DNA of 64,000 bases from Antedon mediterranea (Eukaryota; Animalia; Echinodermata): contig NC_092679.1 in the NCBI RefSeq assembly GCF_964355755.1, forward strand, positions 20,319,432 through 20,383,431, read 5' to 3'. Positions 1,585 to 49,257 of this stretch are shown here, piece by piece; the stretch's first letter is position 1; every line of letters begins with the position of its first letter. The notes beneath the pieces are model-generated. The model worked only from the letters and a program-made list of their open reading frames with translations. It was not told the origin of the DNA and did not search any database. A program made the translations under genes and the position numbers.

Positions 1585-1927
1585 GCTACCTCGAATAGTG
1601 GACGCGGTACTTTCATCTGAAGTAATGAATGGATCAAAAGGGGTTGATCATTTCAAATCAGATGTATACTCTTTAGGAATAGTCTTATGGGAATTGTATC
1701 ACCAGAGGAAGCCCTATGAGGATCTGAATGTGCCAAGTATCATTCAGCACGTGGTTAACGATGGTCATCCAGTAATTGATGCTGAATGTGACGTACGGTT
1801 ACGTGATGTGATGCTAAAATGCTGGAATTACCAACCCGACCAGAGACCAAATGCGGAGCAGATTCTGACGTCACTAATTAACAAAACGAAAGATAGTTCA
1901 AAGGAAAAAGAGAAACATATACATAAA
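1585..1927 (+). pseudogene. Truncated, frameshifted TKL kinase exon (C-lobe only), paralogue of 15093-15914
   Basis: Near-identical to 15540-15914 (EVMNGS.GVDHFKSDVYSLGIVLWELYHQR...CWNYQPDQRP). It lacks the N-lobe/HRD/DFG and has an 11-bp deletion (ggatgtctcct) removing WMSP. It keeps the same donor, CATAAA|gtaag, at 1927. Confidence 0.85.
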
Positions 1928-2256: not shown

Positions 2257-5200
2257 ATGTTATGTTTACACGAAAATGAGCAGATCGAATTTCAACAATT
2301 GTTAACAAACCTCAGCAAAGACTATTTTGGTACAAAATGCCGTTGGTTAAAAATGCTTCTACATGATGTATATAGTGGAGAGTTAGAAGTTACCACTTCA
2401 GGAATTGACTTATTCAATGAACTTGTTGACATTGGAAAGATTTCAATTACTGATGTGACCCTTTTGTCAGAGGTTACTGAAACCACCGAACAGACATCGG
2501 CAAAAGATCGTATAGCCGAATATAAAAGGACTGTACAATGCAGTGAAACATTAGGAACAAGATTAACACCATATCGGAAGGCACTTTTTGAAGCCCTTAG
2601 GAATGTTGGGCCTAATGATTTACATACGGTTATTGGTTTTTACAATGTTAAATCCCATAAATTTGACAATATATGGGATGTTGTTTTCCACCTTGAGCAA
2701 CAGCAACTCTTAGAAGATACCAAAGAAAAGTGCAAACGGTTTGCAGATCTACTAAACAAAAAGACAGGAAGTACATTACTAGGTAAACACTCTTACTTGA
2801 TTAAAATATATTAATTGAAAGAATTTGTGTAGCCCCTTTCTCTCCTATATGGTCAGGGTAAAAAATATTGCCCAGAGTTAAATTTTCTGACACAAATGGT
2901 AATTTAAATCATCTGTCATATTTTTCCACAGCATCTCTCAAAACGTTGAAGTTAAGGTAAGAAAACGAACTTTAATATAATACTATATGATGTCTTTTCA
3001 GAAAATATGTTTGACATAAACAAATGTTTGTGTAATGTTTGATGGTTAAATCATGGAAGAGTATGATTTCACTCTTCCCTGGTTAAATACGGATGAAATG
3101 CATATGGGAAAACTCATCCAAGCGTGGCATGGGACATAGGTCATCAATCTTGAGTTTAGAAAGCTTACAGGTCCTTAATTACACATTTTCTTCAATAATT
3201 CAAATCTAATCGATACTTTGCAAATTTAGAGATGCAACCACGCATTTACTACTTCAACTAAACTTGGATACACAATCTGAACCAGACCGGACACCAAGCA
3301 TGAATCAAACGTCACTTGAAAACGAAATTGAAACAAATCAACAAAAGCAACGAGTGAACACAGTAAGGATAGTATGAACTGAGTCTTGTATTTAAGGCAT
3401 AGAAAGTCAAAATCATAGTCACTCAATCATTCATTTATTGGGGTTGTTTTATCATGTTTCTTCATCCAAACAATAAATATTATTATTATTATTTATGTTT
3501 TCCTAGATTCCACAATTGTTTGCCGCATGTTTTGTAATCGTAGTAGCGTTGTGTGCCGCCTATTCATTACAACTTGACAAAAGCAAATCATTTTCACAAG
3601 CTGTTATAGAATTTGAAGAAAACCCAGTTGCAGGAACAACAGAGCCAGTAAGTTACCTTTAAACTGTTGTATGCTAATAGACCTACTTGTACAAACGATT
3701 ATAATTAATTTAGCATTGTTTATGGTATACTTATTTCGTGTTTATAATAATATTACAGGTGGTATATGGTCAAGAAATGTCAGGTAAGTGGAAGTATTAT
3801 TCAACCACTGGTGATAAAACACATGAAACATATGCTATCGGTCGAAAGGTTATTACATAAAATTATGATACAAGCTATAATAGGTATCCTAGACGGCTAT
3901 TTCTAAATACGTTTTTGCTTTATGTCAGCCTCTACGAAAACGTCAATATTTTCGAAAAGATGAAAATGAAAAAATATAGGTCGAAATATTTAATATTTTT
4001 TTTAGTTTGATTAATATTATTGTAATATATAACATTATAAGAATTTAATTTAAATTGTATTTATATCTGACAATTGAATGTACGATTTTTGTTTTATTTC
4101 TAGGTCCTTCACAGTCAAACATGTTCGAAACATTTATCTGTGGTAATGGAACTAATATAACATTGCCTGCATATCCACAATACTTTAAATGCAACCAGTA
4201 CATTAACTGGACATTCACTACTTACACTGGAAGTTTGCTCTCTGTAAAATTATACGATTTCTATCTAGAGGGTCGCTTTGATTATGTTAATATTTACAGT
4301 GACGGAAACATTATTGGCAAGTTTACTGGGTACGATCGGTTCCTAGTTAACCCCGCAGCAAGTCTCCCATCAGACCTGATCATATCTAGTAATAACAAAA
4401 TAGCGATTTATTCCAAAGGATTTAAGGCCGAGGTATCTGTATACCCTGAAGCCCCAGGTAGGTATAGAGTCATGGAATTATATTTGTTTAGAGTGCACAA
4501 CGTCAACAAGGTTTCCAAAAACTGACATCCGACCGCCGGTGTCACAGATATTTTGTTCCGTTCCGTACCCTCAAACCGTCATCATCTACAGTAGTATCGT
4601 GATCTTAGATATCTAATTCTTAAAGAATAATTCGAACGAAGGCCTACATCTCTTGTGGTTTTAAATCCATATCTAAAAACCTTTATTTTATCTTAAGTGA
4701 AAGTAACAGGTAACATTAAGTGTGTACCAATAACAGACCAACAAAATATAAATGAAAGATATGTTAAAATCTTAACTTTTGAAAGATAAGAATATACAAG
4801 AGTATTTTATAAAGATACGTTTGTGCGTATGTGGGAGAATGTGTCACTTATTAATGCTTTAATATCTGCATGAACTTTTTTTAAAAATTCTCTAGCGGGT
4901 TTTTGTTGTAACTTTAAGCATGGAATGTTGCCTTCTGGCTGGACGCATGATCGTAACGCCAATTGGGAGATATCCTATAAAAGGTATTATAAAAAAAGAA
5001 ACAATGACAATGTCGATCTAGGAAGCCGTTACTCAAGATCAGGTAAATAATTTTTTATTCATATATTGAAAATCAATTCAATCAGTGACGACTCGTAAAC
5101 TGAACATACGTAAATATGTAGGCCTAATATAATTGTTTTGAGATGTTGAAAATACCTACTTTATAATTTCAGATGATTATTACATTTCTGTTGCAATAAA

Positions 5201-5606
5201 TTACGGTGACAGTGGAACCAGAAAAGAGGGTTATATTAATAGTCCAAACATACCAAGCAGATGGGATGAAGCATGTCTTAGATTTTATTACTATATTAGT
5301 GACGGAAATCCAGATCTACGAATTACTGTAGATTATTTTAAGCACCCTTATAATGCAAAGAACGTGTTCAGCGAACATGTTAGTTACAGTCAAAGATGGA
5401 AATCTGCAAGTGTTAATATCAGCATGGAGAAATCAGTTCTCCATGCTATCAGCAATGTCGGTTTAAACTGGGAAGAGTTCCTCCCTTATTTAAATACGTC
5501 CTACTTGATTATTGGTGGAGTAGCATCTGGTGACGATACAGCGATAGTTGCTATTGATGATATTTATCTTAGTGAGGGTGCTTGCCTTGATCATACAGCT
5601 CAGTAA
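2257..5606 (+). CDS. Unit 1: tandem DED - linker - TM - CUB - MAM type II membrane protein (~594 aa from ATG 2257)
   Basis: Phase-consistent exons 2257-2782 (DED-DED), 2932-2956, 3230-3362, 3507-3647 (hydrophobic LFAACFVIVVALCAAY), 3759-3783, 4104-4457 (CUB: YPQYF.CNQ...W...DFYLE..FDYV.IY...GKFTG...GF.A), 4896-5042 and 5173-5606 (MAM: C.F...GW...W, L/INSP, C.F.Y, VAIDDI..S.G.C). Total 1785 nt, no internal stops. The start is uncertain because the DED-exon acceptor is mutated (tttacac at 2265-2271). Confidence 0.75.
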
Positions 5607-6654
5607 ATATGGATTTATGATAAAACGAACAAGTGTGAAAAGATTATAGATGCAATAGTATATTTTAGATCTGCAAACGTATACCCAGTGTAGTTGATAC
5701 AGTATTGGTTTTATAACTAAATGCCGACGCCTGAAAACAGTTCTTAATAATTTTTGGACTTTTGTTTCTCTTTCGTGGGGACGACCCACTTTTATTTCGT
5801 TTGAAACTTTCAGTAACATATAAAATGACAAATTTATTTTTTAAAATACGGTTTAAAATATCTACAAAATAAATAAAATGTTCATTACAGTTTTTACAGT
5901 AAGAGAACTTAAAAACAAGCTTACGTATACTGTAGATATTAAGATGTATAATTAAATAATAATATTGTTAATTTTTTTTTAGCTTTATTTAGATTACAGA
6001 ACTTGATAAGAAAATGGATGTACGATAGCAACGTTTAGTATAATCTATTCATTTTTGGTTTATTACAGCAACAATATTAACATATCTTTCATTTATATTT
6101 TGTTGTTGTTTGACGCTACACAGTTCCAAACTAATCAACGCAGATCTAAAACTCATATCTATTATCAGGTAGACTCCCATGAATTTGAACAATGATTGAA
6201 TAGTAAATACCAGTACTAATACATAGTTTAAAATATCATATTCATACAACAATTTTTTTTATCTGCATTTATTTACTTTTTTATTAGAAAATAAAATGCA
6301 TTACTATTTTGTATTAGGTTACACAATTATTTACCTTTATCTTATATTACTATTAACATTAGGCTACGGAAATCTGTTTTTGTAATTGTTTCAATCCATA
6401 ATGTTTCAATTATAGTTTTTCCAAGGCAACAATTTATATAGTCCTATATTGATATAGGCCTATTTGCCTAAATTTATTTATTAATTTCATAGACTTCGTT
6501 TTCATTATTTTATTAGAATATATAATTAAATTGATAACAGAGGTACGGCTGCACTCGATACAAGTGTTTTCAACTTTCTTAATCCTTGCAAAAATACGTT
6601 TGCGCGTTTTGATGTTGAGACACCTTTATTGTCGTTATTTACTGCGCTACTCTA

Positions 6655-7430
6655 CAAAGTACGCTCTCTCTTTATACGATGAAGGAATTAGCCTAAACGA
6701 ACCAGCAGTCAGAATCAAAACCATTCATATTATAATTTGTTTGTTTTTTTATTACTGGAATTTCCTTTTGTGAATGAAATCGATTGAAATTAACTGATGC
6801 ATAGCATTACAGTGGTAAACATTTTTTGTGTTTAAAATGGTGGCCTAAGTACAATAAATCGTGGTTACAGTACTATTTTACAGTGGATCTGATATGCCAC
6901 TATAATCCTCCTCTATCAAGTGATGTTACTAGACCTAGTTTATCTTACCATCGACGTAGGCCTATCAGTGTAATTACAATACCTCGGCGAACGTCTTAAT
7001 CATAGGCTATAGATAGGATTGTTTTGGATTCAGAGTGCTATATAATCGTGAAATAGAAAGACGATCAATAGAAAGTGGGTGAATCACAAAAGAAAACCGA
7101 AAATATCAATATGCGCGCAATGCATGTTGGGATTTATAGCGTGCCGACTTATTTTTCACATTTTAAACTGTTTAAAGTTATTGCAATATGACCATATATT
7201 ATTTATTTTTACATTAAATGTAGTTTGTGACCTTAAATTAGATATAAAAAATGTAGGGAATGGGACTTTAATAAGTTGAATTTTTATACTCTGGAATTTA
7301 CCTTTGTATGAATTGTGTACATAACACTCTCAGTGGATTATGGGTAATATCATTGTTGTGTTGAATAATGACTTCCTCGTAATCACATCGACACGTAGGC
7401 CTTGTAAAACATGGTAAGTACAACGTATTT
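6655..7430 (+). promoter_or_regulatory. Duplicated upstream/promoter block and ATG-terminated first exon of unit 2
   Basis: 6655-7000 is homologous to 14090-14480 and 22590-22940. 7290-7430 is nearly identical to 19185-19325. kB-like GGAATTTCC at 6757-6765. AAAACATG|gtaagt donor at 7411-7413. Confidence 0.55.
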
Positions 7431-8809
7431 TAAATCATATAAGCTTAGGAAATTAGAAATTAAAGTACCATCCTAAAACAAACTCTATATGATCTAGATA
7501 TCTGAGATGACATATATCCTGCTTCAAATAAGCTTCGACTAGGTTTTAGTCTATCTTTTAAACCGACGACAGTAAAAGTAGGCCTATAAATTATATTGTG
7601 CGTCTACGGATAGAATAATGTTTAGCTCAAAATGAAAAGTTTGGATGGGTATTCTAATTATAACTTTTGTATCTGCTAACCATTTAAATATTGTATCATT
7701 GCTTATTCTCTGACTATTAGTCAAGGAGCCCATGGAGATTTGTTGAGCACTACGACCATACCAACACCTCGACCTTTTGTTAGGAGTAGACGCTCAATTG
7801 TTAAGCTATCCGTTGGTACCATTTTGAAATACATAATACTGTAGTAGTGTGGCTTTACCAGCATCTACTTGTTTTTGGATGGTGACACCTGTTGTACAAT
7901 GTTGTCACAATTTTACAAATGCAGCACAGTGGATAAACATGTGAACAGCGAAATGAGAATGTTACAATTCTGTGGTTCGTCAAAATAGAGAATGCTGATT
8001 GAACCAATAAATTGAGTACTTGACTATAAGGTAGACGTGTTAATGTTTATATTTCACTTCGTGAGCATTCTTGTGTGACATGTTTTGAGACTTCTTTCCT
8101 GTCTTCCAGCAGATATAATAATAGATCTAAAAAAAGATCAAAGACATTATTCCTAATCCGGTCCATTACAAACAAAAATATCAAGACCAAAATCAAATAT
8201 CTACAGTGTATGATTACCAACTAATTCGTTACTAAAAATAAAATAGAATTCCATGGGCATGGAGGGTACGTCACTTGTAAACCGTAGTAGCGTACAGTAT
8301 GTCCCGAGCATTGTATCAGTAAAGCACTATCGTTCCAACTAAATAATAATTGTATCTAGACGTAATGTCCCCGGAACCACCGGTACGTGGCGCTGTACAC
8401 GACTAAAGCTTTAACGGGTAATGCATCCTCTCACCACCAGAATCCTTCATCAACAACAGTCATCCTCCAAGCACAGGAGGAACATAACACAAAATTATGT
8501 GCAACATCAAAGCAGTACACCAGTACATTGTAATCCCTTCACCATGCCTTTTAATATTTTTGAATTTTTTATTGATACAGTTTTTATAATTTACAGGATA
8601 TAGATGGATGTAAATAGTATCACATTTAAGAAGTTTCTGACAATACTCAGCGTAGCTTTACAGAAAAGATGAATATCAGAAAAAAATGAATATTTATGCA
8701 AACCATTTCCATACGCTTATATCATTCAAGTTTCAATACATCTTTGCGTACGATTGGTGACGTGAAATAATGTTCAAGCATCCTTGCAAACAAAATACGT
8801 TTAAGTGAA

Positions 8810-11800
8810 ATGGCAAGATATGATGACAATATCATGTTTAGTACCTTGAAATCTAATTTCAGTAAATGTTATGATTTTCAATCAAACTACAAATGGTTGA
8901 GATTCTGTTTATTTGACTATCTACCTATAGGTGACCTCACTTCAAAATCAACAAGTCAGTTACTAAATTGTCTTGACAATATAGGGGTTATTGCACCTGA
9001 TGATGTTCATCTATTATCAGAAATTGCTGAGCTTTCACGTTTGAAAAAAGCAAAAGTCATTGTAAATGAGTATATGAAGGGAAGTGGTCAAAAAAAGTCG
9101 GAAAGAAAATTGTCGGAATACAGGAAACAACTGTTTGAGGCATCACGAAACGTCGACGAAAAAGATGAGTTAAGTAGAATTATTTCTCACTATGGTTTGA
9201 GTGATGACGAATTCTCAACTATTTGGGATGTTGTATTTTATCTGGAGAAACAAAAACTTTTACAAGATAGGCCAGACGAAATATCGAGGTTTTCAGATTG
9301 TCTTAATCAAACCGCAAAGAATTATCTACTTGGAATTTGTATGTATTTTTCTTTGTTTTTTTAACAAGTATTCTAATACGTTAAAGTTAATTTCTAGATT
9401 AACGGTATAAACTAAAATTAGGCCTATGTATTGTGTTGAAAAACTAGATGTGTACTGTAAAGTTATATCTATGTTTTATTAAAGCCACTGAAGTACAGTT
9501 TTCTTTAAGAGAACGAACAACTGAAGATTCTGACGAACATAAACTGATTTTATCTACCTGTAATGACAAAGGAGAAATAATTGCATATTACCTCTATTTT
9601 CGTGGTTGCATTAAAGAGGTAACGATCACAGAAGGATCTATAGTATTCCATGTAACTTTAGTTGATCCCAGTGCCCTTGAAAAACTATGGAAGCTTCATC
9701 AAAGTGGGCAGCTTCTGAAAGATATAGCAGAAATACTTTTTACAGAGAAACGTCGAAAAGAGTTTGAACAGACTTGGGAGACACAGTTTGACCATCAAAT
9801 ATACAACGATGCTCTTAATAAGTTAAACGGAAAAGGTGAGGAATAAGTTAATTTATACCTGGATAATCTAAAAAAGGGATAAATTTACCAGGCCATAGAG
9901 GCCAAACTCCTGAAATGCTTTATGTAGGTATTATTGTATCCGTGATTACCGTTAGCCCATTATTAATTACCTAATTGGCATAAATTCAACTGCTATTTGA
10001 AAATGTTTACCTTAATTACACCAAACAATCTAGTAGCTTGTAATAAACAATGACACATTTGATTTGTTGTTTACACCACCACCACCATATAAAATATGGT
10101 TATCTCTTGAGACCATTAGCTATTATATTTTAAATAAGATTGTATCTAAATTGATATTTTAGAATTTAGCACATTTGTCAGATGTCACGAATTAATTTTG
10201 ATCTTATATATATATATATATATATCTCCTCTTGCTTCTTTTCTCGATCCAGAACAAAGACCAAATGTGGTGCAGAAACTAAAAACAGTTGTTCGTCGTA
10301 GAGCCAGGAAAAACGAGAATACAGTAAGGATAGTATGAACTTTTCTTGTACTGTAGACTTCACGAAGCTAAATCTTACAGTCCAAAGTGAAACAATTTCT
10401 AATGAATAATTATTGTTTCTTAATAACGTATTAATAGGTGTAAAACAATAATGATTCTTGTCTATTATTTTTCTGCACATGTTTATATTGTAGACTTTCA
10501 ATTATATTATAGTTATGTTTTTTCTATAACTGGTAAAGTATGGCAGAGGCAGCTGCGTACAACTTTCTAAAACCTAAGCTTGAAGATGGGTGCTGTGGTA
10601 TTTACAACTATATATTTTACGCGTACATTTATTACCGTGACACACTGTGCATCTGTATTATATTTCTCATATTGATATAAATACTTATTGATAACTTTTA
10701 TATTGACAGGATAAAGATCAAATCAAATGTCAACAGTTTCTATCAGACCTCAGCAAAGACTATGGTGGTGTAAAGTATCTTTGGTTAAGAATGCTATTAC
10801 ATAATAGTATACCCATTCAATGTTTAGAAGATAGCAAAACAGGACTTGAGTTATTCAATGAACTTGTTAAACTTGGAAAGATTTCAAATACTGATGTCAC
10901 CCTCTTGTCCGAGGTTGCTGAAACCACCGAACAGACATCGGCAAAAAAGCGTATAGCCAAATATAAGAAGAAAATACAATGCAGTGAAACAGGAACAAGA
11001 TTAACACCATATCGAAAGGCACTTTTTGAAGCCCTCAGGAATGTTGGGCGTGATGGTTTACATGATGTTATCAATTTCTACAAACTGATAGATCGTAACT
11101 ATGACAACATATGGGATGTTGTTTTCCACCTTGAGCAACAGGAACTTTTAGATGATACCCAGGAAAAGTGCAAACTGTTTGCAGATTTACTAAACAAGAA
11201 AGCACAAAATATTTTACTAAGTAAGTCAGACTTAATCTTATTTGATCAAATGTAATTATACTACTGTACTCTAGTACATTTTTAGTTTCAAATTGGATAA
11301 TTTTCCAATGAGTGTAAAAAATATTCGTTGCCATTGTTTGAAAACATGCCTCTACAGAGTTGAACTTGGTGAAATATTTAATTCGATTCTTTAACATTCT
11401 CGTATGGAAAACGGATAACTCGACCTTGTCTTTTTTTTTCACAGATGCTGTCAATAATAGGTAAGAAAATGGCTAAAAATAACGTTTAAAAAAAAGAATC
11501 AGGTTGGGATTGCCTTATCCAAGTATGACTTGTTGCGTTAAGAATATATACAGTAGCTTGGTTATAGTCCTAAATTATTAAAAATATGACTAAACTTTCT
11601 TAATTTAGAGAAGCAGTACCTCTTCAGAAGAGAATAATTCAGAAAATGAAAAGCAAACAAATATTTACAGTAAGGATATTATAAACTAAGTTTAAGTCTT
11701 ATATACTTGTTGTTTTCATCTTTTAACTGTTTTTTCGACCATAATTATATAATGGACACTGCCATAATATGTGAATAACCCTACCGCTGTTTATATCGCA

Positions 11801-13387
11801 GGTCCTATACAATGTCTTTGAGTTAGTTTATATGTTATATACAGTAGATGACATGAGTAAATATCTTTATTTATATATTTATATTATTTTTTTTAGGTTT
11901 AACTCATTGATTCGTGTTTGTGACTTTTGGATAAGCTTGAACAAAGTTCTAAACCATAATAATTAATTTTGTCTTATATCTGTTTTCTAGCCTAACAACT
12001 GGTATTGGATACCTGCACTGTTATTGGTTGCTTTTGCAATACTACATCACTTATCAGGGCATATGAAGGAAAATAATCGTAAGCAAATCCTTAAAATATC
12101 CCAGTTCTTTAATCTTAAATCTCTAAATTATAAGTTTGCGCAGTTGTGATTTGTTTTTGTGTGGTAGGCCTACTAGAGAGGAAGATGATTTGACTGAAGC
12201 TTTACAAATATTCGTAAAATATTGTTATTAATAGGGAGGTTTCGCAACCTTACGAATACGATAACGAAAACGGATACGTCATACATTTGTGAAACTTTTG
12301 AGCTGATCCCCATTTCATATTCGTAAAGCGTATTCGTGTTGTTTGACGAACATCACCAGTCATATTCGTAACTACAAAACGAGTATAGTTTTTTTTATCT
12401 ATTTTGCACATTTTGCATTTGAATCAGGAATGATTCATGATTCATGATTATAATATAATTATAGATTTATTGAAAGTAATTTACTAAAGTAATTTACTAA
12501 AAAGACAAGTCAATTTTGATAAATAGCAGTTTTTAAAGTCCTCACTGGCTTTGATGTTACGCTAGGCCTAGGCAGCCAAGCACCAAGCAACACGTACCTG
12601 CGCTTCGCTCAAATTTACCGCAGTCATATTTTGGACGCGCCTCAATATTTCGTTGCCATGCGAAACAGATTTTTTTATGGCTTACGAAAACGAATACGTG
12701 TGCTTGACGTATCCGTTTTCGTTATCGTATTCGTAAGATTGCGAAACCTCTCTATTATTCTTTTGTTTGTATTTAGATTGTATTCATAATGATTTCAACC
12801 ACAACAAATTTCCGTGTGCTAATTGGACACATCATGGTGCCAAAAAATGGATGTTAGGAAATGAAAGATATAATGTCGGCTACGATTTAGGAAAAAATTA
12901 CTCAGGAGGATCAGGTAAAATGATGTCATACATTGTAAATCAGAAAATTCATACAATTTTTGCTTACCAATAACGACAAATGAATTGATCCTTTAATTAA
13001 CTGATGATGTATGAAATGGTGTCATGTAAGTCCTACTTTATATTTGCAGGTAACTATTACATTTATGTTGCAAAAAGTGATGAAGAATCCATAAAAGAAG
13101 GCTGGCTTAACAGTCCAAAAATACCAGACGAATGGGACAATGTGTGTATTGCATTTGATTTTTACAATAGTAACAATGATTCACGAATTAAGTTATATCG
13201 TATTACTAATGACAAAGACAAGGAAGTCATCCAAATTCCTTATAACAAAGGGGAATGGAAGCGTCTTTCTATCGATAAGCCTGTTAATACCAATACTTAT
13301 CACTATCTGATTGGCGGATTAGCATCTGGTGACGGTCAACAACTAGTTGTTCTTGACAATATTTTGATTAGTAAGGGCAAATGCTAA
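8810..13387 (+). CDS. Unit 2: divergent DED-DED - TRADD-N-like domain - DED-DED - TM - MAM (~730 aa)
   Basis: Phase-consistent exons 8810-9338 (divergent DED pair), 9485-9835 (TEGSIVFHV...ALEKLWKLHQSGQL, TRADD-N-like), 10163-10323, 10710-11220 (DED pair), 11445-11460, 11609-11669, 11991-12078 (WYWIPALLLVAFAIL TM), 12777-12914 and 13050-13387 (MAM). Total 2193 nt, open throughout. Confidence 0.72.
12233..12753. mobile_element. MITE / non-autonomous DNA transposon in a unit 2 intron
   Basis: ~48-bp terminal inverted repeats (agggaggtttcgcaaccttacgaatacgataacgaaaacggatacgtc / gacgtatccgttttcgttatcgtattcgtaagattgcgaaacctctct). Flanked by AT on both sides. No ORF. Confidence 0.85.
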
Positions 13388-14300: not shown

Positions 14301-15092
14301 AAGTGTGTACAGCGTATTTTTTACAAATTATTCCAGCAGCAAAATAATACCATCTGTACAACTAATATTGAATCTGATATTTCATTATCCTCTTTATCGA
14401 GTGATGTTACTATAGGCATGTTTATTTCAGTGTAAAATTATATTGCGTATTCGTATTCATATAGGCCTACATAGGATTGAAATGGTGTGTTTCAATGTGA
14501 TTCTGAACAGTAAGATATTTTAGCCACATAAAAAACCTATATTATTTTAAAATTCAGGAACAGTAACCGTTGACAACTCGTGTTCCTAGACATAACTCGA
14601 TAATCTCCACACGTACAGAGGGTCTACAAACTGTAGAACATTATAATGTTAATACAGGATTCATGTCTGTAATTTCAATAATGATTACGAGCATAGCAAC
14701 TTCTTATGCAGAATAATGCATGCCATACGCACATCGTTTTTTTCTTATTGATGAATTATTTATTTACAGGATAATTATTAAATTTAAGCAGTTTTTAACC
14801 GTTCTCTGGAAAGCTCAAGTTTACCGCAATTATTAAATATCCCTTGTACCATCCTAGAGGGTGTGAGCGCACCTTCAAGTACTTTTGAATTTGTTGTCGA
14901 TTTGCAGTTACGTAAAATAATTATGTTTGATATGGTCGTCTTAGTTATCGATCTAGATATCTAGGATACCACTACGGCTCCATTTTATTTTATTCTTTTG
15001 TATTTCCAGTTTGTATTGAAAACAATCCATGCATTTAATTCGTGGTATTGATTACGCGTTTGTATACAATATAGTCAAATCAGGGGCACTAA

Positions 15093-18040
15093 ATGGATAA
15101 CTTGAAAATATTTAAACAAGAAGATATCGAGATCAAGCAGCAGTTGGGAGGTGATTATAAGTTCAATGTGTTTTTAGGAATTGTGAAAAAAACTGGCAAT
15201 TTAGTAGCAGTGAAAAATATCAAAGTTGACAAACGGGAGTTGGATATATTGAAAGAGCTACGGCACGCAAATGTTATCCGACTGTTAGGAACTATTGACC
15301 GTGACACGTCAACAGGGTTAGTGCTTGAATACGCACCCAAAGGAAGCCTATATGATTTCTTAAATATTAGGCCTATAAATCACTATGACTATTTAGATTG
15401 GTGTAAACAGGCCGTACGCTCGGTCGTGTATATCCACGATCGAGCCGTATCGCATAGAGATATAAAATCTAAGAATTTTTTAGTTTTTGGAGATAATATC
15501 AAGCTAATTGATTTCGGATTGTCAAATGATGTCACTTCAACTACCTCGAATAGTGGATGCGGTACATTTATCTGGATGTCTCCTGAAGTAATGAATGGAT
15601 CACAAGGGGTTGATCATTTCAAATCAGATGTATACTCTTTAGGAATAGTCTTATGGGAATTGTATCACCAGAGAAGGCCCTATGAGGATCTGAATGTGCC
15701 AAATATCATTCAACACGTGGTTAATTATGGTCATCCAGAAATTGATGCTGAATGTGACGTACGGTTACGTGATGTAATGCTAAAATGCTGGAATTACCAA
15801 CCAGATCAACGACCACACGCGGAGCAGATTCTGACGTCACTCGATAACGGAACTGAAACATTTGTCAGAAGTCGTTCCAAGAAAAAAAAGAAACAAATAT
15901 CAGGCATACATAAAGTAAGCATGTCATGACTTTTTCTTTTCGACAAAAACGTACTGTAACAACTGAGCATGCAGATTTTAATATATTTGATAGCGTTCTG
16001 ATTTTGATATTGACCTGTTCTTTTAATGGTATTATATGCCTATCTTTTTTATCGATAAATTTTACATTATTTTCAGGACAATCATATCGAATTTAGAAAG
16101 ATCAACCAACCAGATCAACGGCCACATCCGGAGCAGATTCTGACGTCACTCGATAACGAAACAGAAACATTTGTCAGAAGTGGTTCCAGGGAAAAACAGA
16201 AACAAATATTAGGCATACATAAAGTAAGAATATAACAACTGAGCATGCACATTGTAATATATTTGATATTCTATTTTTAAATTGACCTGTTCTTTTAATG
16301 GTATTATATGCCTATCTTTTTTATCGATACATTTTACATTATTTTCAGGATACTCATATCGAATTTAGAAAGCTTCTATCAGATCTCAGCAAAGACTATG
16401 TCGGTTTAAAGTACCGTTGGTTAAGAATGCTTCTACATGGTATTATACCTATTGGATGTTTAGAAGTTAGCACTATAGGACTTCAATTATTCAATGAACT
16501 TGTTGAACTTGGAAAAATTTCAAAAACTGATGTAAGCCTTTTGTCAGAGGTTGCTGAAACCACTGAACAGACATCGGCAAAAGATCGTATAGTCGATTAT
16601 AAAAGGACTATACAATGCAGTGAAACATTAGGAACCAGTTTAACATCATATCGAAAGGCACTTTTCGAAGCCCTCAGGAATGTTGGGCTTGATGATTTAC
16701 TTAAGGTTATTGGTTTTTATAAACTTAAAGACTATGGCTTTAACAATATATGGGATGTTGTTTTTTACCTTGAGAAAGAGAAACTCTTAGACGATACACA
16801 GGACAAGCTAAAACTATTTGCAGATCTCCTGAACGAAATGGCACGAAGTATTTTACTAGGTAAATTAGACTAGAGAAGATTAAGAGGATCTCGGACAGTA
16901 TACTGTTAATCTTTTCTAAATTGGGAGTATCATTATCATTGGTCTAGAAAGTTAGTTATAAGTGCATTGATTTCTCAATGGATAGCATACCCTTACCATA
17001 GATTATTATGAACAACTATTGCCTGAGCATATTTAAACTTGGGGAAAGGTTTCATTAGAGTTTTAATCTTAAAATGTATTTATGAAATTGTAGAACACGT
17101 TAAATGTTTCCATTTATTCCTTTCAGCAGCCGCTCCCAAGACTCTGGAAAGAAGGTGAGAATAATGACTTCACCAAAAGTAATCTTAATGAATTACCTCT
17201 GAAAAATAAATATAATTGTCCAGCAATGACGTAATGGTCAAATTGTTTGTATATTATATGTAGTTAATGTATTTATGCTTACACCATGATGCTGGAATTG
17301 GATTAAATTAATTAAATTGACAATTCTCATCCCTTTGTCCGAAAAGTAGTCCCATTAAAAAATATTTGAAACGCTTTTAGCATCAGTCCATATTTATTTA
17401 ATGCGATAATACTGTCCAAATATAGAGAGAAAACCAATTCTTCACCACACGTCAATGCTCCTTTGGATTGGCAAAAAGAAGGACTCAGACGAATAAAGGA
17501 AAATGATCTTAAGAGAAATTATTCTGGGACGGTAGGCTGTCTATCTATTAAGTATAACTGAATTTTTGAAATAGAAAGGAGTAGTTATTGGACCTTGTTC
17601 TGAACCCCTGACATTATATTCCAATTTGACACTAATAAATAAACATTTCTGTCGTCTCACATGACACTGGTTTTGTGAAGACGCGTTGGCCTCCAAAACG
17701 ATAGTTTAATAATGTCCGTGTTTTCATTGTAGCTTAATTATGTATTTTTAATTGGCCTGGTATTTTATTGTAGGTCTGTTCATAACGATCTTTGTTCCAA
17801 CGTTAGAAAAAGAAGATAAATAACTTGTTATTTATTTTAACATTACAGGTGAGAGTATATGATCGAGAATTCAAGTTTGATGGTGGCCATGAATGGTGGA
17901 AGTTTTTTTCAACAGCTACCGATATTGCAACTGGGATTAAAGCGAAAGCTGGGGGTTACAAATCAATGGGCGGGGCAAATGAACATGCTATCGAAAACCT
18001 CATTTATAAACTAATGGCGCAGGGTATCATAAGAAATTAG
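15093..18040 (+). CDS. Unit 3: TKL-group Ser/Thr kinase - DED-DED - ALF-like domain, no TM (552 aa; 601 aa with optional exon)
   Basis: Exons 15093-15914 (VAVK, ELDIL, HRDIKSKN, DFG, GTFIWMSPE, KSDVYSLG..LWEL, CW...RP; MLK/ZAK-like TKL), optional 16077-16223, 16349-16859 (DED pair), 17127-17154, 17426-17531 and 17849-18040. Phases 0/0/1/2/0 all match. 1659 nt without the optional exon. Confidence 0.8.
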
Positions 18041-19306: not shown

Positions 19307-22191
19307 GTAAGTACAACGTATTTTGAACAAATTGTAAACACTTTTAGGATTAAGAGAGTGAAAATACCATTTTAAAACAAACTTTATGTAGACCTAATCT
19401 AGATATATGAGATGCCATTTTTATTCTGCTTAGAATAAGCTGTAGGCTTCGAATTAAAGAACCTAGTACATCTTTCGAGACGAGTAGGGGGTTACCCCGG
19501 TGTATTAGTACATCACAGCCACTGATCACCAATTGGGCCCTCTGGGAGACCAGTCTTTGACTGAAGAGGTTACCCAGTATAAATATAAATTTCAATTCAA
19601 TTCAATTCAATAGGCTGTAGGCTTCAAATAGGCTGTAGGCTTCGAGTAGGCTGTTGTCTATCTAGTTATGGACAACAGAAAATTATCAATCATATTTCTT
19701 CTGTGCGCCTACTGTACGGATAGGATGATGTTTAGCTAAAATACAAGTTTGAATGGATATTCAAATTCTGTATCTGCTACACACTTCAACAGTGTATTAC
19801 TATTTATGTTGTAACTATTACGACATTGATATTATTCTATACCTCCTTCAATACGCCAAGTCATGTAGCCGTTTGTTGTTTTGTGAATTGTGTTTTAAAA
19901 TCATTACCGCAACACTTAACAACAATAGGCCTGGTACGTTCGAAATCAAAGTTAATCACATTACTTTGTTCGCCTACTGGAAAACAAGCTTAACACAGAC
20001 ATTTGTCAATATTGCTCGTCGTAAGCTAAGCCATTTTTTAAATGTAAATGTAAATGTAGCCATCTTTTTTCTCATTGATATTTCATTTATTATTTTACAG
20101 GATACAGACCAGATCAAATTTAAGCAGTTTCTAACAGATCTCAGCAAAGACTATGTTGGTTTAAAGTACCGTTGGTTAAGAATGCTTCTACATGGTGTTA
20201 TTCCCATTCAATGTTTGGAAGTTAGCACTACAGGACTTGAACTGTTTAACGAACTGGCTGAACTTGGACAAATTTCAAATACCGATGTTACCCTTTTGTC
20301 TGAGCTTGCTAAAACAACTTCTCAGAAATCGGCAAAACAGCGTATAGCCAAATATAAGAAGAAAATACAATGCAGTGAGACATTAGGAACCAGTTTAACA
20401 CCATATAGGAAAGCACTTTTTGAAGCTCTCAGAAATGCTGGGCCTAACGATTTACTTAAGGTTATTGGTTTCTACTCGCTGAAAGACTATAACTTTGACA
20501 ATATATGGGATGTTGTTTTCCACCTTGAACAACAAGAACTTTTGGATGATACCCAGGAAAAGTTCAAACTGTTCGCAGATCTTCTAAACAAAAAAACAAG
20601 AAGTGTTTTTCTAGGTAAGTCAGACTCACTCTTACTGGAATTATACATTTCTGGTTTTTATTTCATCTCTAAACTTTTTTTTCGATTCTAAATTGAGTGA
20701 GGTGTTAAAGATGTTAACTGTCTCATTAATTATTTTTCCACAGCTGCTCTTAAGACTCTGAAAAGGTAAGAAAATGAAATTTACCAACAATTTATAATTT
20801 TGTTAGTCAGACTAACAAAAAAAAAGTGTAAATGTTTGTGAACTAGATGAAAGGGGTTTGATTTTCAAGATATATAGGCCAATAATTGATACTTGGATTT
20901 AATAAATGCAACATATTTGTTTGCCAATCTCGTTGTCTGAAACCGACACCGAGTCTTCAATTATCTTAAACTATAATAACGGTATAATAAACTTTATAAA
21001 ATTAGAGATGCAACCACAACTTCACCTCAACTACTGGATACACAATCCGAACCAAACCTTCAGCGTTTTCTCAAACTGGACAAAAGACCAAATGTGGCGA
21101 GGTACTTAGCAGGAATACATACAGTAAGGAGAGTATGAACTTTTTAAAATGTATAATAGGCTTAGTGAAGTCAACATTCATTTTTCGTACAATGTTTATA
21201 TTGTTTTATTTTGTACTGAGGTCATTATAAGTCGTGATTGTAAATGACACAATCAGAGTTTCCTCGTCTCAATTACGTTACGCATATTCTAAATTATTAT
21301 TCTTGTATGATATTCATCTGTTTTCTAGACTGTTCGTATATATTGGCCATGGATAGCACTGAGTATATTAATCATGTTCGTCGCCATTCAACTTCCAAAA
21401 TTCAACTTACCATTAACCCCCAAAGCGCCCTCAAGAGATTGGCAAGCGGAAGGGCTCAGACGAATGAGGGAAAATGATCTTAAGAATAATAAACGAGGAA
21501 CGGTAAGACCTTTTTAACTAATTTACAAATATACTATATGAAGTATAATATCTGAATGTTAGGAATTATTATTATTTAAATTCCTTCATTCTGATTAAAT
21601 AATAAGAAGAGATGCGCCTGGTAACTGAGATAGCTGCCCAATTATCTTCGTCATTGCAGTTACAAAACTGAATTGCAAGTATAAAATTCACAATAAAGTG
21701 GGTAAAAAGAGAAAAAAAAAACCAGTAACAATCTATATTTAGAAATTATTTAAACCTCCCAATGATATTAGAATTAATTAAGTAATTTATAAACGGTTAA
21801 TGTGTACCATGGAACACCAGGAATAATAAATAATAAATAACATTTTTTATTGATTATTTAAAATATTATCTGGATACACCCGCATGCGACAAGGCGGCAT
21901 ATAACAATGATTAATGCTGCTAATCTTATATTATTCTTTCTTTATTTTTATTCTGTTTTTTTTTTTGTGAATACATATTTGTTTATTTTAATATCACAGG
22001 TGAAAGTATACGATCGGGAATTCAAGTTTGAAGGTGGCCATGAGTTTTGGAAGTATTACTCGACCGCTACTGATGTTGTAACTGGGACCAAAGCGGAAGC
22101 TAAGGGGTATCAGTCAATGGGTGGGGCCAATGAGCATTCTATTGAAAACCTCATTTATAAGCTCATGGCAAAAAAATCGATTAAAAATTAA
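19304..22191 (+). CDS. Unit 4: DED-DED - linker - TM - ALF-like domain, type II membrane protein (340 aa)
   Basis: Exons 19304-19306 (ATG), 20101-20614, 20744-20765, 21006-21123, 21329-21502 (YWPWIALSILIMFVAI TM then RDWQAEGLRRMRENDLK) and 22000-22191. 1023 nt in frame. AATAAA at 22378. Confidence 0.8.
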
Positions 22192-22470
22192 AACTAAATT
22201 TGATATGAATCATAATTAGAATATATAGGTTGATTTAGTTTTTCTGAAGAACCCTTTTTATCGTTTATGTAATCTTTCATGTACATTGATATTTTAAAAA
22301 TTATTATGTAATAGTACTACCGTATATCATAATGGCATAATTCATTGTTAGGCATTTTGTGTATTTTAATACTTTATAATAAATAATATCTATAAGTAAA
22401 GTAGTCCTAGTTCGAATTGCATTGCAGATGTTTGAGAAAGAGGGAGGGTGGGGGATACGTTTTATTTAAA

Positions 22471-22590
22471 AATACCAGACGAATGGAATGAAGCGTGTCT
22501 TAAATTTAAATACTTACTGACGGAGATACAAATCAACGAATTATGGTAGATCATGTTAAAAAGGGCGAACCTGAAAACGTGTCCAGCATG
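22471..22590 (+). pseudogene. Relic MAM-domain exon fragment
   Basis: ataccagacgaatggaatgaagcgtgtcttaaattt (IPDEWNEACLKF) matches the MAM exons at 5250-5370 (IPSRWDEACLRF) and 13121-13160 (IPDEWDNVC). Frameshifted, with no acceptor. Confidence 0.75.
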
Positions 22591-22760
22591 CTAAACCATT
22601 CATAGCAAATTCTATTTTTATTCTTTGGAATTTCCTTTTATGAATAAAATCAATTGAAATTAATTCATGCATGACCATTTCAATTGTACGCAGAATGAAT
22701 TGTGTTTAAAATGGTGGATTAAATACAATATACAGTATCAGGTTAGGAACACTTTGAAGC

Positions 22761-25700
22761 ATGGTAAGTAGGCCTACAGTTTACCAATAGCAAAAAAATA
22801 GCATCTTTACAACTATATTTGAATCTGATATTCCATTATATTCTCGTCTATTTCGAGTGATGTTACTAGGCATATAGTTTATGTTACCATCGACGTGGGC
22901 CTACAATGTAAAATGATATTTCCTCGGTGTAGGCCTACGTCTAAATAAATGGGTGCTATTCAGGGTGGTGCTAGTTGATTCTGAACTAAGATATTTTAGT
23001 CAATGTAAAGTAAGTATGTATTTTAAAAGTCATTCACTAACCGTTCTCTCTAAATTTGTGTTCCAATTACCCACACATAGGTCTACAAATGTACATCGCA
23101 TGATTCATGTCTAATCTGCCAATGCTTATGACTCGTCGTCATATCATAGGAACTTTGCCTAATGTCATATAAGTCAAACATTTTTTTCATATAGATAATT
23201 GTTATATTACAGGATCATATAGATCAGCGATTTTTAACAGACCTAAGTGAAGACTATGTTGGTTTAAAGTATCGTTGGTTAAGAATGCTTCTGCATGGTA
23301 TTATACCCATTGGATGTTTAGAAGTTAGCACTACAGGACTTGAATTATTCAATGAACTTGTTGAACTTGGAAAGATTTCAAAATCTGATGTAACACTTTT
23401 GTCAGAAGTTGCTGAAACCACTGAACAGACATCGGCAAAAGATCGTATAGTCGATTATAAAAGGACTATACAATGCAGTGAAACATTAGGAACCAGTTTA
23501 ACATCATATCGAAAGGCACTTTTTGAAGCCCTCAGGAATGTTGGGCGTGATGATTTACTAAAGGTTATTGGTTTTTATAAACTTAAAGACCATGGCTTTA
23601 ACAATATATGGGATGTTGTTTTCCACCTTGAGAAACAGGAACTCTTAGAAGATACCATGGAAAAGATCAACATTTTTTCAAATCTACTAAACAAAAAGAC
23701 AGGAAGTAAATTACTAGGTAAATCAGACTCTTACTTAATATAATATACATTTCTGTTTATAAATTAGTGTTATTAGTAAAGTAAGTTTTTAGGGAACTTG
23801 GAGAGTTTAAAAAAAATATTAATCATTTTTTTAATGGAAGTTGGTGAGTTTTAGAGTCCAGTAACCATTGCTATATAATAGCTTGCACATAAATACACTT
23901 TGGTGGAAGATGTCATTCGGGTTTGAAACATTTAAAAAAGTTCTCGTATATATTACAGTATCTTCTCTAAAAATGAACAAATATTATGAAAAACACAAGT
24001 TAAATCATTCTTCTGTTTTCCACAGCTGCTGCTTCCAAGACTCTCGCAATTAGGTAAGAATTAATGATTATTAAAACATGGAATTTTATTTATTATTTCG
24101 GTTTTGTAAACTGTCTTCATCCAATCAGGCCTGTATAAGAAAATAAATTACCACTATTATACTGTATTAAAAACGTTAAATATATTGTAAAAACTTCCCA
24201 AATTTAGAGGAGCAACTGCACCTTCACCTCAAGCAGACTTGGATGGACGGCTAGCTTCACAATCAAAATCAAATCCTCTTTTGGCAGCACCTTCCCAGGA
24301 TTTTCAACAAGAAGAGCTCAGACAAAGAGAGGAAAATAATATTACCAAGAAAAGTGATGTCAGTGGAACAGTATGTTTTGTTTAAATTATTAATTAACTA
24401 ATGCAGCCTATATAATATGTATTTGATCGGTTTATCAGTCTTGACATCTAAATAATTTTCAAAAAAAAAACAACACCGCCTTTCTTTTCCTTCAGTCGAT
24501 TCAAAGTTCTCTGACGTTCACAACATTTTAGGCAGTTTTAAAATTGTTTATAATCATGCTTAGACCATAGATCAAACGCATAGCAGAGTTTGACGTCACT
24601 CATACCGAAACTGAAACAATTGTATGGAAAAACAAACAAATTAGGTTGTTATGAATTGTATTAACTTGTACGTAAATATCTAGTCCAAGCGTCAAACAAT
24701 TCTTCATACACAATGTGTAGATTTGTTTTAAACAAGGTGAAATTATTTTGTAATTTTTATAAGGCCTCTTAAGTTACGGTATACGATATCCACTCGACAT
24801 TATAATTAGTTTAATCAGGGAAAAGTTAAATTACATTTAAATCTTCCCTGGTTTAATTGACATGTGTAACATTGGTATTGACTACGAATCAATCTGGTTA
24901 TTTCTTGACCAAATTCCAAGTAATTATTTCTTTCTTCTGTTTCCTAGTCTGTCTACAGATATTGGCCATTGATAGCACTGAGTATTGTGTTGTTGGCGTT
25001 AGTTGCCAATATATACCCTTATAAAGTTGATGAAATACGACTTCCCCTATTCGAACAGGTAACCACGCCTTCACCACAGCCACACTCTGATGGCATAGAA
25101 CCGGTAGCACAACCAGTTACGGAACCAACCACAAAACCAGTTGGAGCAACCACCGAACCTACGAAATTTATATTGCCATTAACCCCTACAGCGCCCTCAA
25201 GAGACTGGTCGGCGGAAGGGCTCCGACGAATGAGGGAAAATGATCTTAAGAAAAATATGCGTGGAACGGTAAGACCTTTTTACTAGTATTAAAAATATAT
25301 AATATGAAGTATTATCTAAATTAACCAAATTCCTTTCATTCTAATCATTATAGTGAAGCGTAGTCGATTTCTTTCCTGGCCTGGTAATGCCAGCCTAGTA
25401 TATTTTTTAATATGTTTTGCCTTTCACTTTATTATCTTCACCATTGCAGTTACAAAACTGAATTGCAAGTATAAATTTACAATAAATTTGTAAAAAGAAG
25501 ATAAAAAAACCAGTAACAACCTATATATAAATTTGACAGATATGAAGAAATTCCTTAAACCGACCAATGATATTAGAATGAATGTTTTAAACGGTTATTG
25601 TGTACAACAGAACACCAGCAAAGATAAATGATAAATAAATTTGTTTATTTCTTATTTACAATATTATCTAGGATACACCTGCATCATGCGAAAAGAAGGT

Positions 25701-25987
25701 ATTATAACAATAACTAATGCTAATCTGATATACTATTCGTTCAGGTGGTTTTTGTGAATACATATTTGTTTATTTTAATATCACAGGTAAAAGTATACGA
25801 TCGGGAATTCAAGTTTGAAGGTGGCCATGATGTTTTGAGTTATCCCTGGTATTACTCGACCGCTACTGATATCGCAACTGGGACCAAAGCAGAAGCTACG
25901 GGGCATCAGTCAATGGGTGGGGCTAATGCTCATGCTATTGACAACCTGATTTATAAGCTCATGGAACAAAATTCGATTAAAAATTAA
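22761..25987 (+). CDS. Unit 5: DED-DED - linker - TM - Thr/Pro-rich stalk - ALF-like domain (406 aa)
   Basis: Exons 22761-22763 (ATG), 23213-23717, 24026-24053, 24208-24370, 24948-25268 (YWPLIALSIVLLALVANIY TM; TTPSPQP...TEPTTKP...TTEPT stalk) and 25787-25987. 1221 nt in frame. AATAAA at 26165. kB-like GGAATTTCC at 22627. Confidence 0.8.
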
Positions 25988-47620: not shown

Positions 47621-48034
47621 TTAGAAATCGTGTTTAATTTTTAAGGATTGGAAAAGCATGTCAGCTCTAAAGGTATCATAATTGTCTTATTGTTGTTCTT
47701 ATTACTTTAATAACACGTTTCACGCACGTCAATATCTCGTTCAATTCAAGCGCGTTCATTTGAAACTAATTTTCTTTAGCGTTCAGTTAGAAATAACGCA
47801 AGTTATGAACACGCTAAGAAAACAATCAACACATATGTCATCATCTTTTGTTATCATTTTTGTTGTGGCCGTATATACTTTCAATTATGGAACGCTTATG
47901 AGATAACAATAATATTTCATTACATACCTTCAAAGATGTATTTCCGATAATAAACGAATGAAAGACGTTGAAATTATATATATATATAATATTAATAACG
48001 TATTTTGGTCACCAATGAATAATATCCATAGAAT

Positions 48035-49070
48035 TGAGAATAGACTAAAGCCAAAACAAGTGAGAATAGACAAAGGCCAAAACAAGTGAGAATAGACAAA
48101 AGCCAAAACAAGTGAGTATAGACTAAAGTCAAAACAAGTGAGAATATACTAAAGCCAAAACAAGGGAGTATAGACTAAAGCCAAAACAAGTGAGAATAGA
48201 CTAAAGTCAAAACAAGTGAGAATAGACAAAGGCCAAAACAAGTGAGAATAGACTAAAGTCAAAACAAGTGAGAATAGACTAAATCCAAAACAAGTGAGTA
48301 TAGACTAAATCCAAAACAAGTGAGTATAGACTAAAGTCAAAACAAGTGAGAATAGACTAAAGCCAAAACAAGTGAGAATAGACTAAATCCAAAACAAGTG
48401 AGAATATACTAAAGCCAAAGCAAGTGAGAATAGACCGTAAAGCCAAAACAAGTGAGAATAGACTAAAGTCAAAACAAGTGAGAAATAGACTAAAGCCAAA
48501 ACAAGTAGGCCTAAGAATAGACTAAAGCCAAAACAAGTGAGAAATAGACTAAAGTCAAAACAAGTGAGAAATAGACTAAAGTCAAAACAAGTGAGAAATA
48601 GACTAAAGTCAAAACAAGTGAGAATAGACCGTAAAGCCAAAACAAGTGAGTATAGACTAAAGTCAAAAACAAGTGAGTATAGACTAAAGTCAAAAACAAG
48701 TGAGAATAGACTAAAGCCAAAACAAGTGAGAATAGACTAAAGTCAAAACAAGTGAGAATAGACTAAAGTCAAAACAAGTGAGTATAGACTAAAGTCAAAA
48801 CAAGTGAGAAATAGACTAAAGTCAAAACAAGTGAGAAATAGACTAAAGTCAAAACAAGTGAGAATAGACTAAAGTCAAAACAAGGGAGTATAGACTAAAG
48901 TCAAAACAAGTGAGAATAGACTAAAGTCAAGACAAGTGAGAAATAGACTAAAGTCAAAACAAGTGAGAATAGACTAAAGTCAAAACAAGTGAGAAATAGA
49001 CTAAAGTCAAAACAAGTGAGAATAGACTTAAGTCAAAACAAGTGAGAAATAGACTAAAGCCAAAACAAGT
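48035..49070. repeat. 26-27 bp minisatellite (gtgagaatagactaaagtcaaaacaa)n, ~39 copies
   Basis: Head-to-tail units without spacers. Variants gcc/gtc/tcc, gaat/gtat/gaaat. Confidence 0.95.
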
Positions 49071-49257
49071 AAGGACAACAGCCCATCTTAAAAATTTCGT
49101 GATAATAAATTTAATGAAATATTTTGAACTAACGAACAATTTGCAAGTCTCGCTACAAAAACTATTTTTTTACCCTTGTCTTTTTTGTTGTTGCCGTGTT
49201 TGTGGTTATCATTGTTTTCTTGTTCGTTCTTTTGGTTGTTGGTTGTTTTTTTTTTTT

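Follow-up and report, generated by a model that had tools for sequence, protein, structure and literature searches.

As a rule, exon shuffling has to be deduced from intron phases, the old junction having vanished. In the available part of a study of lophotrochozoan RLRs, intronization and exonization are the main driver of domain grafting, and ectodomain shuffling in KIR genes is cited there as well (PMC8998645). Authentic ALFs are described, in the accessible text of one source, as small secreted proteins in which two conserved cysteines close the lipopolysaccharide-binding hairpin (PMC10672452); shrimp ALF genes, in the accessible text of another, carry helix 1 and the sheet on separate exons (PMC6213531). 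Here, we analyze a window of 64,000 nucleotides from the crinoid Antedon mediterranea (contig NC_092679.1, positions 20,319,432 to 20,383,431), AT-rich animal DNA whose first 26 kb hold five related plus-strand genes (units 1 to 5) that likely encode putative immune receptors. We find a decayed ALF-fold exon inside unit 1, and we consider it likely, taking the account as a whole, that its first 25 bases form a predicted adaptor that leads from phase 0 to phase 1 and thereby onto a captured CUB-MAM ectodomain.

The exon models of all five units are open, and tandem DED-like domains are common to them (Pfam DED, at or near the cut-off). Unit 3 has an intact kinase and lacks a transmembrane (TM) segment, which is present in units 4 and 5. 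All 356 residues of the unit 2 model match RefSeq protein P0010, 339 of 340 residues of unit 4 are identical to P0001, and 405 of 406 residues of unit 5 are identical to P0004; P0002 is the RefSeq counterpart of unit 3, with its 5' end modelled otherwise. The C-terminal ends differ. Units 3, 4, and 5 share one 89-residue domain, whereas the last domain of unit 2 is MAM, and unit 1 closes with CUB-MAM. The first-pass annotation of the window had placed intact ALF-like exons at 17849 and about 22000, both of which are borne out, and had overlooked a third copy at 25787.

In unit 1, the transmembrane exon (3507-3647) ends in phase 0, a TACAG acceptor ends at 3758, a donor GT lies at 3784, and the CUB exon begins at 4104 in phase 1. 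The acceptor, 25-nt segment, donor, and phase-1 CUB exon are thus all found where the first-pass annotation had put them. On sequence grounds, 3759-3893 corresponds, in decayed form, to the terminal exon of units 3 to 5, and it spans the whole of the old exon. In an acceptor-anchored global alignment with the three intact terminal exons, this segment reaches a summed score of 251.6, compared with 170.8 +/- 14.6 for its dinucleotide shuffles. The score is attained by none of 3000 shuffles and by none of 593 other YAG/G sites of the window, whose maximum is 209.8 (here and below, a slash within a motif marks the exon border). Pairwise alignment with shuffled controls had been set beforehand as the test, and it is significant on both counts. 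The intron part alone (3786-3893) is equaled by one of 2000 shuffles and none of 684 real windows, and its first block (3784-3820, including WKYYST) by none of 3000 shuffles and none of 1075 real windows.

The resemblance extends to the encoded protein. The fossil reads VVYGQEMSGKWKYYSTTGD in frame 0 and SVERLLHKIMIQAII in frame +1, the latter aligned to AIENLIYKLMAQGII. Summed over six homologs, its N-terminal half scores 228 (best control, 154) and its C-terminal half 205 (best control, 175), and none of 3139 YAG sites equals either half; the best partner of the N-terminal half is P0005, with a score of 52. The earlier observation that the intron beyond 3783 still resembles the ALF-like exon therefore holds. 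The significance of the fossil depends on its prior position, and it is detectable because of that location. We regard it as highly probable that the fossil is real and that the change ran from ALF-like to CUB-MAM.

The micro-exon has canonical AG and GT borders and a length of 3n+1, and it restores the reading frame. Its acceptor scores 10.2 and its donor 11.6 with a local splice matrix, among the stronger of 24 modelled sites; because the paralogs used to build this matrix are related, the acceptor score is inflated. When the micro-exon is skipped and the acceptor at 4104 is used, a stop follows 19 codons on. With the 25-nt exon included, the eight-exon model of unit 1 has 586 open codons encoding DED-DED-TM-CUB-MAM, with GT-AG at all seven introns. 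Exons of 16 to 28 nt are normal in this receptor family. A spliced unit 3 contig from run X5 (an RNA-like run of another sample, read as assembled contigs) leaves 135 letters where the model requires 135, an exact fit to the small exons. Our assessment is that the micro-exon quite probably was the working adaptor.

Several observations weigh against this account. As DNA, the second block of the fossil (3821-3893) is weak, its score being attained by 58 of 3000 shuffles and 3 of 545 real sites, or, once the scores are adjusted for composition, by 110 of 2000 and 31 of 1026, respectively. In an unanchored nhmmer search, the fossil is the best non-self match, yet at E = 0.32, and with an unanchored protein profile its two pieces reach E = 2.6 and 31. 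Homology is not significant for the 3' end of the unit 1 transmembrane exon against ALF-type exons (668 of 3000 shuffles; 632 of 2000), for the unit 1 intron at 3660-3740 (833 of 3000), or for the flank of the unit 1 donor (150 of 3000). A remnant of the 3' untranslated region at 3894-4085 is marginal against units 4 and 5 (61/2000, 14/384) and absent against unit 3; given these marginal statistics, it is not claimed. Furthermore, with an acceptor at 4112-4114 (exon start 4115), the transmembrane exon continues in frame into CUB when the micro-exon is left out, and thus the 25-nt adaptor is not strictly required, even though the acceptor at 4104 scores 9.2 and that at 4115 scores 4.9. The first-pass annotation had held that the micro-exon supplies exactly the phase change needed by the CUB exon. 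The predicted shift from phase 0 to 1 stands, given the 3n+1 length and the open frame, but the need for it is not strict, both through this bypass and because a phase match had a prior chance of 1 in 3. The junctions 3647 to 3759 and 3783 to 4104 are predicted, and the X5 contigs do not cover 3526-3913, a gap that is evidence neither way.

The condition of unit 1 also belongs among these points. Its kinase is 5'-truncated and, compared with unit 3, has lost 11 nt near 1619, which shifts the frame; in a tblastn search with P0005 only residues 167-277 match at the remnant. The acceptor of its DED exon is AC rather than AG at 2270-2271, and the in-frame GAG and CAG fallback acceptors just 3' of 2271 are weak (-3.4 and -8.2). 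On the unit 1 DED branch, nonsynonymous divergence (dN) is 0.113 and synonymous divergence (dS) 0.115, a dN/dS of ~1 compared with 0.16-0.44 elsewhere, although gene conversion can distort this ratio. The unit 1 protein, expected to be 100% identical, was not found in two protein searches (lengths 206-2000 and 292-2000) that did return its neighbors or the CUB relative; units 2 to 5 are annotated. On balance, we put the chance that unit 1 is still functional somewhat below even. In favor of a past function are 586 codons and seven GT-AG introns that are intact beside a frameshifted fossil.

These points lend themselves to two other explanations. The fossil might be real but passive, with the transmembrane exon spliced straight to 4115 and the 25-nt segment not or rarely included. 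This skip model is fully open, and the score of the 4115 acceptor lies within the modelled acceptor range (1.8-13.7). However, the AG 11 nt upstream scores better and is the first AG past the pyrimidine tract, and a consensus donor and an intact acceptor bracket the 25 nt amid decayed surroundings; we consider a passive fossil unlikely. Alternatively, unit 1 might be a chimera born of recombination, ALF-type in its 5' half and CUB-MAM in its 3' half, that never worked and whose donor arose by chance in neutral decay. The broken kinase, the change of AG to AC in the acceptor, the dN/dS of ~1, and the failure to find an annotated protein would all fit. Yet 586 codons across seven introns hold neither stops nor frameshifts despite ~0.11 nonsynonymous changes per site on the DED branch, while the adjacent fossil took several deletions and a frameshift. 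By a rough estimate, such decay, if neutral, would give several stops, and a perfect donor in the correct phase is unlikely to arise by chance. This explanation is, in our judgment, decidedly unlikely, and an adaptor that once worked remains the preferred reading.

The old domain is an ALF-fold relative at the superfamily level (ALF/SCYG), not an authentic ALF. An AlphaFold2 model from six sequences folds its 89 residues into a helix, four strands, and a helix (pLDDT 91.4 in one of five models, 40-52 in the others). The top Foldseek match is the shrimp ALF 2JOB (TM score 0.61, E 0.03). VIA-align against 48,161 chains also places 2JOB first (Z 8.6, root-mean-square deviation 3.6, 83 of 89 residues aligned, 16% identity), and the first rank for ALF held in both VIA runs. 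In an Atlas feature search, ALF clusters come first (0.79, 0.78), and the Atlas model of its own has a TM score of 0.76 to an ALF cluster; we take both as leads only. When 1.84 billion proteins were searched with a profile, 46 matched, of which 39 were scanned, leaving out four query proteins and three very long ones. PF11630 is matched by 18 of the 39 at E <= 0.05 and by 13 above the cut-off, namely 12 repeat proteins with summed scores and the single-domain P0034. These relatives include an amphioxus protein and, below the cut-off, a coral protein. The earlier proposal of an ALF-like ancestral ectodomain is thus upheld at the superfamily level, by the top fold match and the relatives that pass PF11630.

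Direct searches with the domain itself gave little. None of six members has a direct Pfam match (PF11630 and dsrm included), and the 63-residue exon alone found no match in Pfam, in a PDB sequence search, or in Atlas. A kinesin, the sole PDB profile match of the old domain, was rejected as chance level (E 0.49). The domain is cationic (pI 8.2-9.9) and forms the C-terminal part of 340-623-residue proteins with an N-terminal DED or kinase; the cysteine pair is absent, with no cysteine in five of six domains and one in the sixth. Cysteine-poor ALF-fold domains are also seen as two to five tandem repeats (P0015-P0027 and P0046), with one amphioxus protein having two; some repeats lie behind an N-terminal hydrophobic segment, and fusions to an AIG1/GIMAP-type GTPase occur as well. 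The ALF fold seems to be a reusable module far outside arthropods.

The outgroup crinoid Anneissia japonica has a kinase-TM-ALF-like protein (P0006) and a form lacking the transmembrane segment (P0007). Thus, the ALF-like end predates the Antedon/Anneissia split, in a comparison that covers ALF-ended receptors only. MAM-type unit 2, P0009, and P0012 retain an ALF helix-1 remnant at the end of the transmembrane region, before MAM. The unit 1 CUB domain is 52% identical to that of P0008 (XP_071963925.1), a CUB-MAM-ZP protein whose gene lies on the same 25-Mb contig, and unit 1 MAM exon 2 has 39% identity to P0008. A five-row MAM tree has unit 1 adjoining P0008 (89/90, unstarred), and in the DED tree P0005 groups with unit 1 (98/97). 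Further CUB copies of ~82% DNA identity are present in the sequencing runs, so P0008 need not be the donor.

In each of the three intact terminal exons, a Gly codon contains a latent GT in phase 1 (after 17882, 22033, and 25820), and P0005 has S-G at the donor place. These latent sites score -2.0 to 1.2, compared with 11.6 for the unit 1 donor, which, judged from its sequence, looks like the activation of such a GT. No AATAAA or ATTAAA is found in 3784-4103, and units 3 to 5 each have one in the 3' flank. We infer the following order of events. The ancestor would have been a type II membrane protein whose kinase and tandem DED lay on the inner side and whose ALF-fold domain lay on the outer side. 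A rearrangement within the tandem array, likely a deletion or unequal crossing-over, would then have placed phase-1 CUB-MAM exons downstream of the former terminal exon; the likely source of this captured module is a gene of the CUB-MAM-ZP type. Small deletions may next have brought AAGT behind the latent Gly-codon G/GT, yielding CAG/GTAAGT, with the old polyadenylation signal lost. What remained of the exon would finally have turned into intron and decayed. The first-pass annotation had attributed the replacement to the gain of a splice donor. The donor CAG/GTAAGT agrees with this, with two amendments: donor gain is not the whole cause because the CUB-MAM exons had to arrive downstream by DNA rearrangement, and the GT looks to have been latent already.

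Unit 2 would have reached the same phase shift separately, as seems likely, through one base change in helix-1 codons, one exon upstream of the site in unit 1. Its donor region resembles units 3 to 5 (equaled by 3 of 3000 shuffles and none of 804 sites; in a second test, by 1 of 2000 and none of 1607), and RefSeq model P0010 uses this donor despite its low score of 1.7. P0009 and P0012, which lie outside the window, have the helix remnant followed by linkers of 25 and 28 nt if exon borders match. Without its inverted-repeat insert, the unit 2 intron shows no significant homology (2201 of 3000). Uniting the four MAM-type rows in a single clade is rejected for DED (p-AU 0.0026; the test was made after the first DED tree had been seen, with two long outgroup rows left out), and DED history is, as these sequences read, uncoupled from ectodomain type. 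A decayed MAM exon-2 fragment lies at 22464-22594 (none of 2000 shuffles), 270 bases behind the ALF-like last exon of unit 4 and where unit 4/5 flank homology stops; a MAM-type gene since deleted probably left it behind. The tree rejection and this remnant make it likely that recombination or gene conversion has acted repeatedly between the inner and the outer modules.

An array that exchanges segments could, in principle, have produced the fossil the other way around, with CUB-MAM first and a piece of ALF exon entering the intron by gene conversion or ectopic recombination. The DED tree is compatible with such traffic, and the MAM copies are more diverged than the DED copies. Against this, the remnant stays collinear all the way from the acceptor to the stop region and sits at the ancestral position, Anneissia bears the ALF-like end, and unit 2, P0009, and P0012 keep their helix-1 remnant before MAM, so that a reversed direction appears extremely improbable. 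Had an ALF-type 5' half recombined onto an older CUB-MAM receptor in unit 1 alone, this would still be a swap from ALF-like to CUB-MAM. The swap would likewise be real, and its label wrong, if the old domain were an RNA sensor resembling double-stranded RNA-binding domains (dsRBDs) and paired with the kinase in a PKR-like logic. The dsRBDs take the next VIA-align ranks (Z up to 7.0, root-mean-square deviation 2.5, 69 aligned), forms without a transmembrane segment are known (unit 3, P0003, and P0007), and the lack of a cysteine pair and of direct Pfam matches suits this idea. Nevertheless, ALF comes first in Foldseek and both VIA runs, as it does among the Atlas leads, and sequence relatives pass PF11630. 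The model has four strands, one more than the alpha-beta-beta-beta-alpha fold, and the lysine pair that opens helix 2 in dsRBDs is absent in alignment A2. We hold a dsRBD-like identity to be very improbable and retain the ALF-fold assignment.

Table 1. Features of units 1 to 5 that bear on the proposed ectodomain swap (positions in the window).
Feature	Position	Strand	Basis
Unit 1 remnant of kinase exon, limited to C-lobe, without its 5' half in window	1586-1927	+	Pfam kinase; BLASTN 1586-1935 vs 15541-15922, 84%
Unit 1 tandem-DED exon	2281-2782	+	Pfam DED E 2.4e-8, just under cut-off
Unit 1 25-nt exon, phase 1-2	2932-2956	+	Paralogs have 16-28-nt exons at same place
Unit 1 cytoplasmic linker exon, phase 2-0	3230-3362	+	Exon model
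Unit 1 transmembrane exon, phase 0-0, predicted type II	3507-3647	+	Hydropathy 2.26 over 19 residues
Unit 1 predicted adaptor micro-exon, 25 nt, VVYGQEMS+G, phase 0 to 1, 5' end of old ALF-like terminal exon	3759-3783	+	Alignment, model, splice scores
Unit 1 donor GTAAGT in CAG/GTAAGT, likely at latent Gly-codon GT	3784-3789	+	Splice matrix
Unit 1 intronized rest of ALF-like exon: WKYYSTTGD block ~3788-3816, frameshifted C-terminal helix block ~3832-3885	3786-3893	+	Alignments
Unit 1 CUB exon, phase 1-1; alternative in-frame phase-0 exon start 4115	4104-4457	+	Pfam CUB E 1.7e-5, above cut-off
Unit 1 MAM domain, two exons (4896-5042, 5173-5606)	4896-5606	+	Pfam MAM E 5.7e-10
Unit 2 transmembrane exon (11991-12078) with own phase-1 donor ATC/GTAAG; ALF-type paralogs have ATCTTAAG here, inside helix 1	11991-12084	+	Homology, P0010
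Unit 3 (kinase-DED-DED, no TM) ALF-like terminal exon, intact	17849-18040	+	P0002; spliced contig of run X5
Unit 4 (DED-DED-TM) ALF-like terminal exon, intact	22000-22191	+	P0001
Unit 5 (DED-DED-TM-stalk) ALF-like terminal exon, intact	25787-25987	+	P0004

Further observations concern the array and its surroundings. Upstream of the truncated unit 1 kinase, a 256-codon minus-strand open reading frame (3-770) runs off the window start; it has no Pfam match, and we take it to resemble a retrotransposon ORF1 that may have broken the kinase exon. Across 2674-7220, difference-free contigs have about half the depth of difference-carrying ones (145 vs 235-322 in run X2; 8-12 vs 19-22 in X4). X2 and X4 are two DNA runs of one sample, the pattern is not clear in X1, contig depth is not copy number, and no second version of this region was found at 80% likeness in those DNA runs; it hints weakly that just one haplotype carries unit 1. 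The motif ATG/GTAAGT (ACG in unit 3) recurs within conserved upstream blocks at 7407, 14297, 19305, and 22760, probably as first exons that contribute only the start codon, and none was seen upstream of unit 1 within the window. At 8771-9846, a more distant tandem-DED open reading frame is followed by an exon for a TRADD-like N-terminal domain (Pfam PF20694, 24.9 bits, above the cut-off), possibly an adaptor gene within the array. The intron of unit 2 between its transmembrane and MAM exons holds a high-copy element at 12229-12757 with 53-bp inverted ends and very high depth. In unit 3 (15093-18040), an X5 contig is spliced across the last exons. The cytoplasmic linker exon of unit 5 (24208-24370) closes with a degraded version of ALF helix 1 (E 0.3), which suggests that the transmembrane exon originated by duplication of a linker-plus-helix exon. 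Further duplication scars are a duplicated kinase-end/DED-start piece (16079-16223) and two short leftovers from the starts of DED exons (8597-8700 and 14771-14830). A tandem array with units of ~26 bp lies at 48032-49073, and the rest of 30000-64000 has no clear long gene open reading frame.

The receptor proteins have no signal peptide, one transmembrane segment, and mostly more basic residues before it, which predicts that they are type II proteins whose kinase and DEDs are cytosolic. Cytosolic versions of the ALF-like sensor appear to exist too, in unit 3 and in P0003, a RefSeq isoform of unit 5 from which the transmembrane segment is absent. Ligand-driven clustering of DED proteins would recruit FADD/caspase-8-type partners. 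The modelled cationic ALF fold suggests a microbial-surface ligand, and CUB-MAM suggests a protein or glycan ligand, or adhesion. More broadly, but only tentatively, the locus may belong to a crinoid pattern-recognition family that couples a cysteine-free ALF-fold sensor directly to a kinase and tandem DEDs, at the membrane and in the cytosol, organized as a cassette array with repeated ectodomain swaps, donors recurring in ALF-coding sequence, and copies that vary between haplotypes. The gene family itself takes the ALF fold beyond the secreted peptides of arthropods to likely signaling receptors in an echinoderm class with barely studied immunity, which suggests a direct route from microbe sensing to death signaling that can be assayed. 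A single 26-kb array contains the replaced exon, three copies that are intact, the latent donor, and a second, separate solution, so that the steps of the swap are readable and testable.

A literature search returned no account of a crinoid (kinase)-DED-TM-ALF-fold receptor family, with most subscription papers and supplements beyond its reach. The mechanism, exon shuffling with donor activation, is already known, and its record here is unusually good; the receptor family is apparently undescribed. The crinoid domain shares with ALF/scygonadin (PF11630, 2JOB) a cationic helix-four strands-helix fold and, roughly, the separation of the helix 1 exon from the sheet exon seen in the accessible text on shrimp ALF genes (PMC6213531). 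It differs from ALFs, which in the available parts of the literature compared come from crustaceans and horseshoe crabs only, in having neither cysteine pair nor signal peptide, one C-terminal helix in the model where ALF has two, sheet and last helix on one exon, and fusion to transmembrane, DED, and kinase modules. Like unit 1, P0008 (DMBT1-like) has CUB followed by MAM, but P0008 goes on to ZP and a C-terminal transmembrane segment, whereas unit 1 ends after MAM and is anchored N-terminally. In the amphioxus "direct connector" receptors, as far as the available text describes them (PMC2575513), domain shuffling similarly fused sensors directly to death-fold domains. The architectures named there (DED-NACHT, TNFR-caspase, LRR-caspase, and others) include neither kinase-DED-DED-TM-ALF nor DED-DED-TM-CUB-MAM, and the crinoid topology, in contrast, is predicted to be type II. 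As in phase-1 module exon shuffling generally, the CUB exon is symmetric (1-1) and the MAM exons are phase 1; part of an exon has turned into intron. Compared with RLR grafting, as presented in the accessible portion of that study (PMC8998645), the old terminal exon is here readable whole beside three intact copies, and two paralogs show what appear to be separate donor gains in the same phase.

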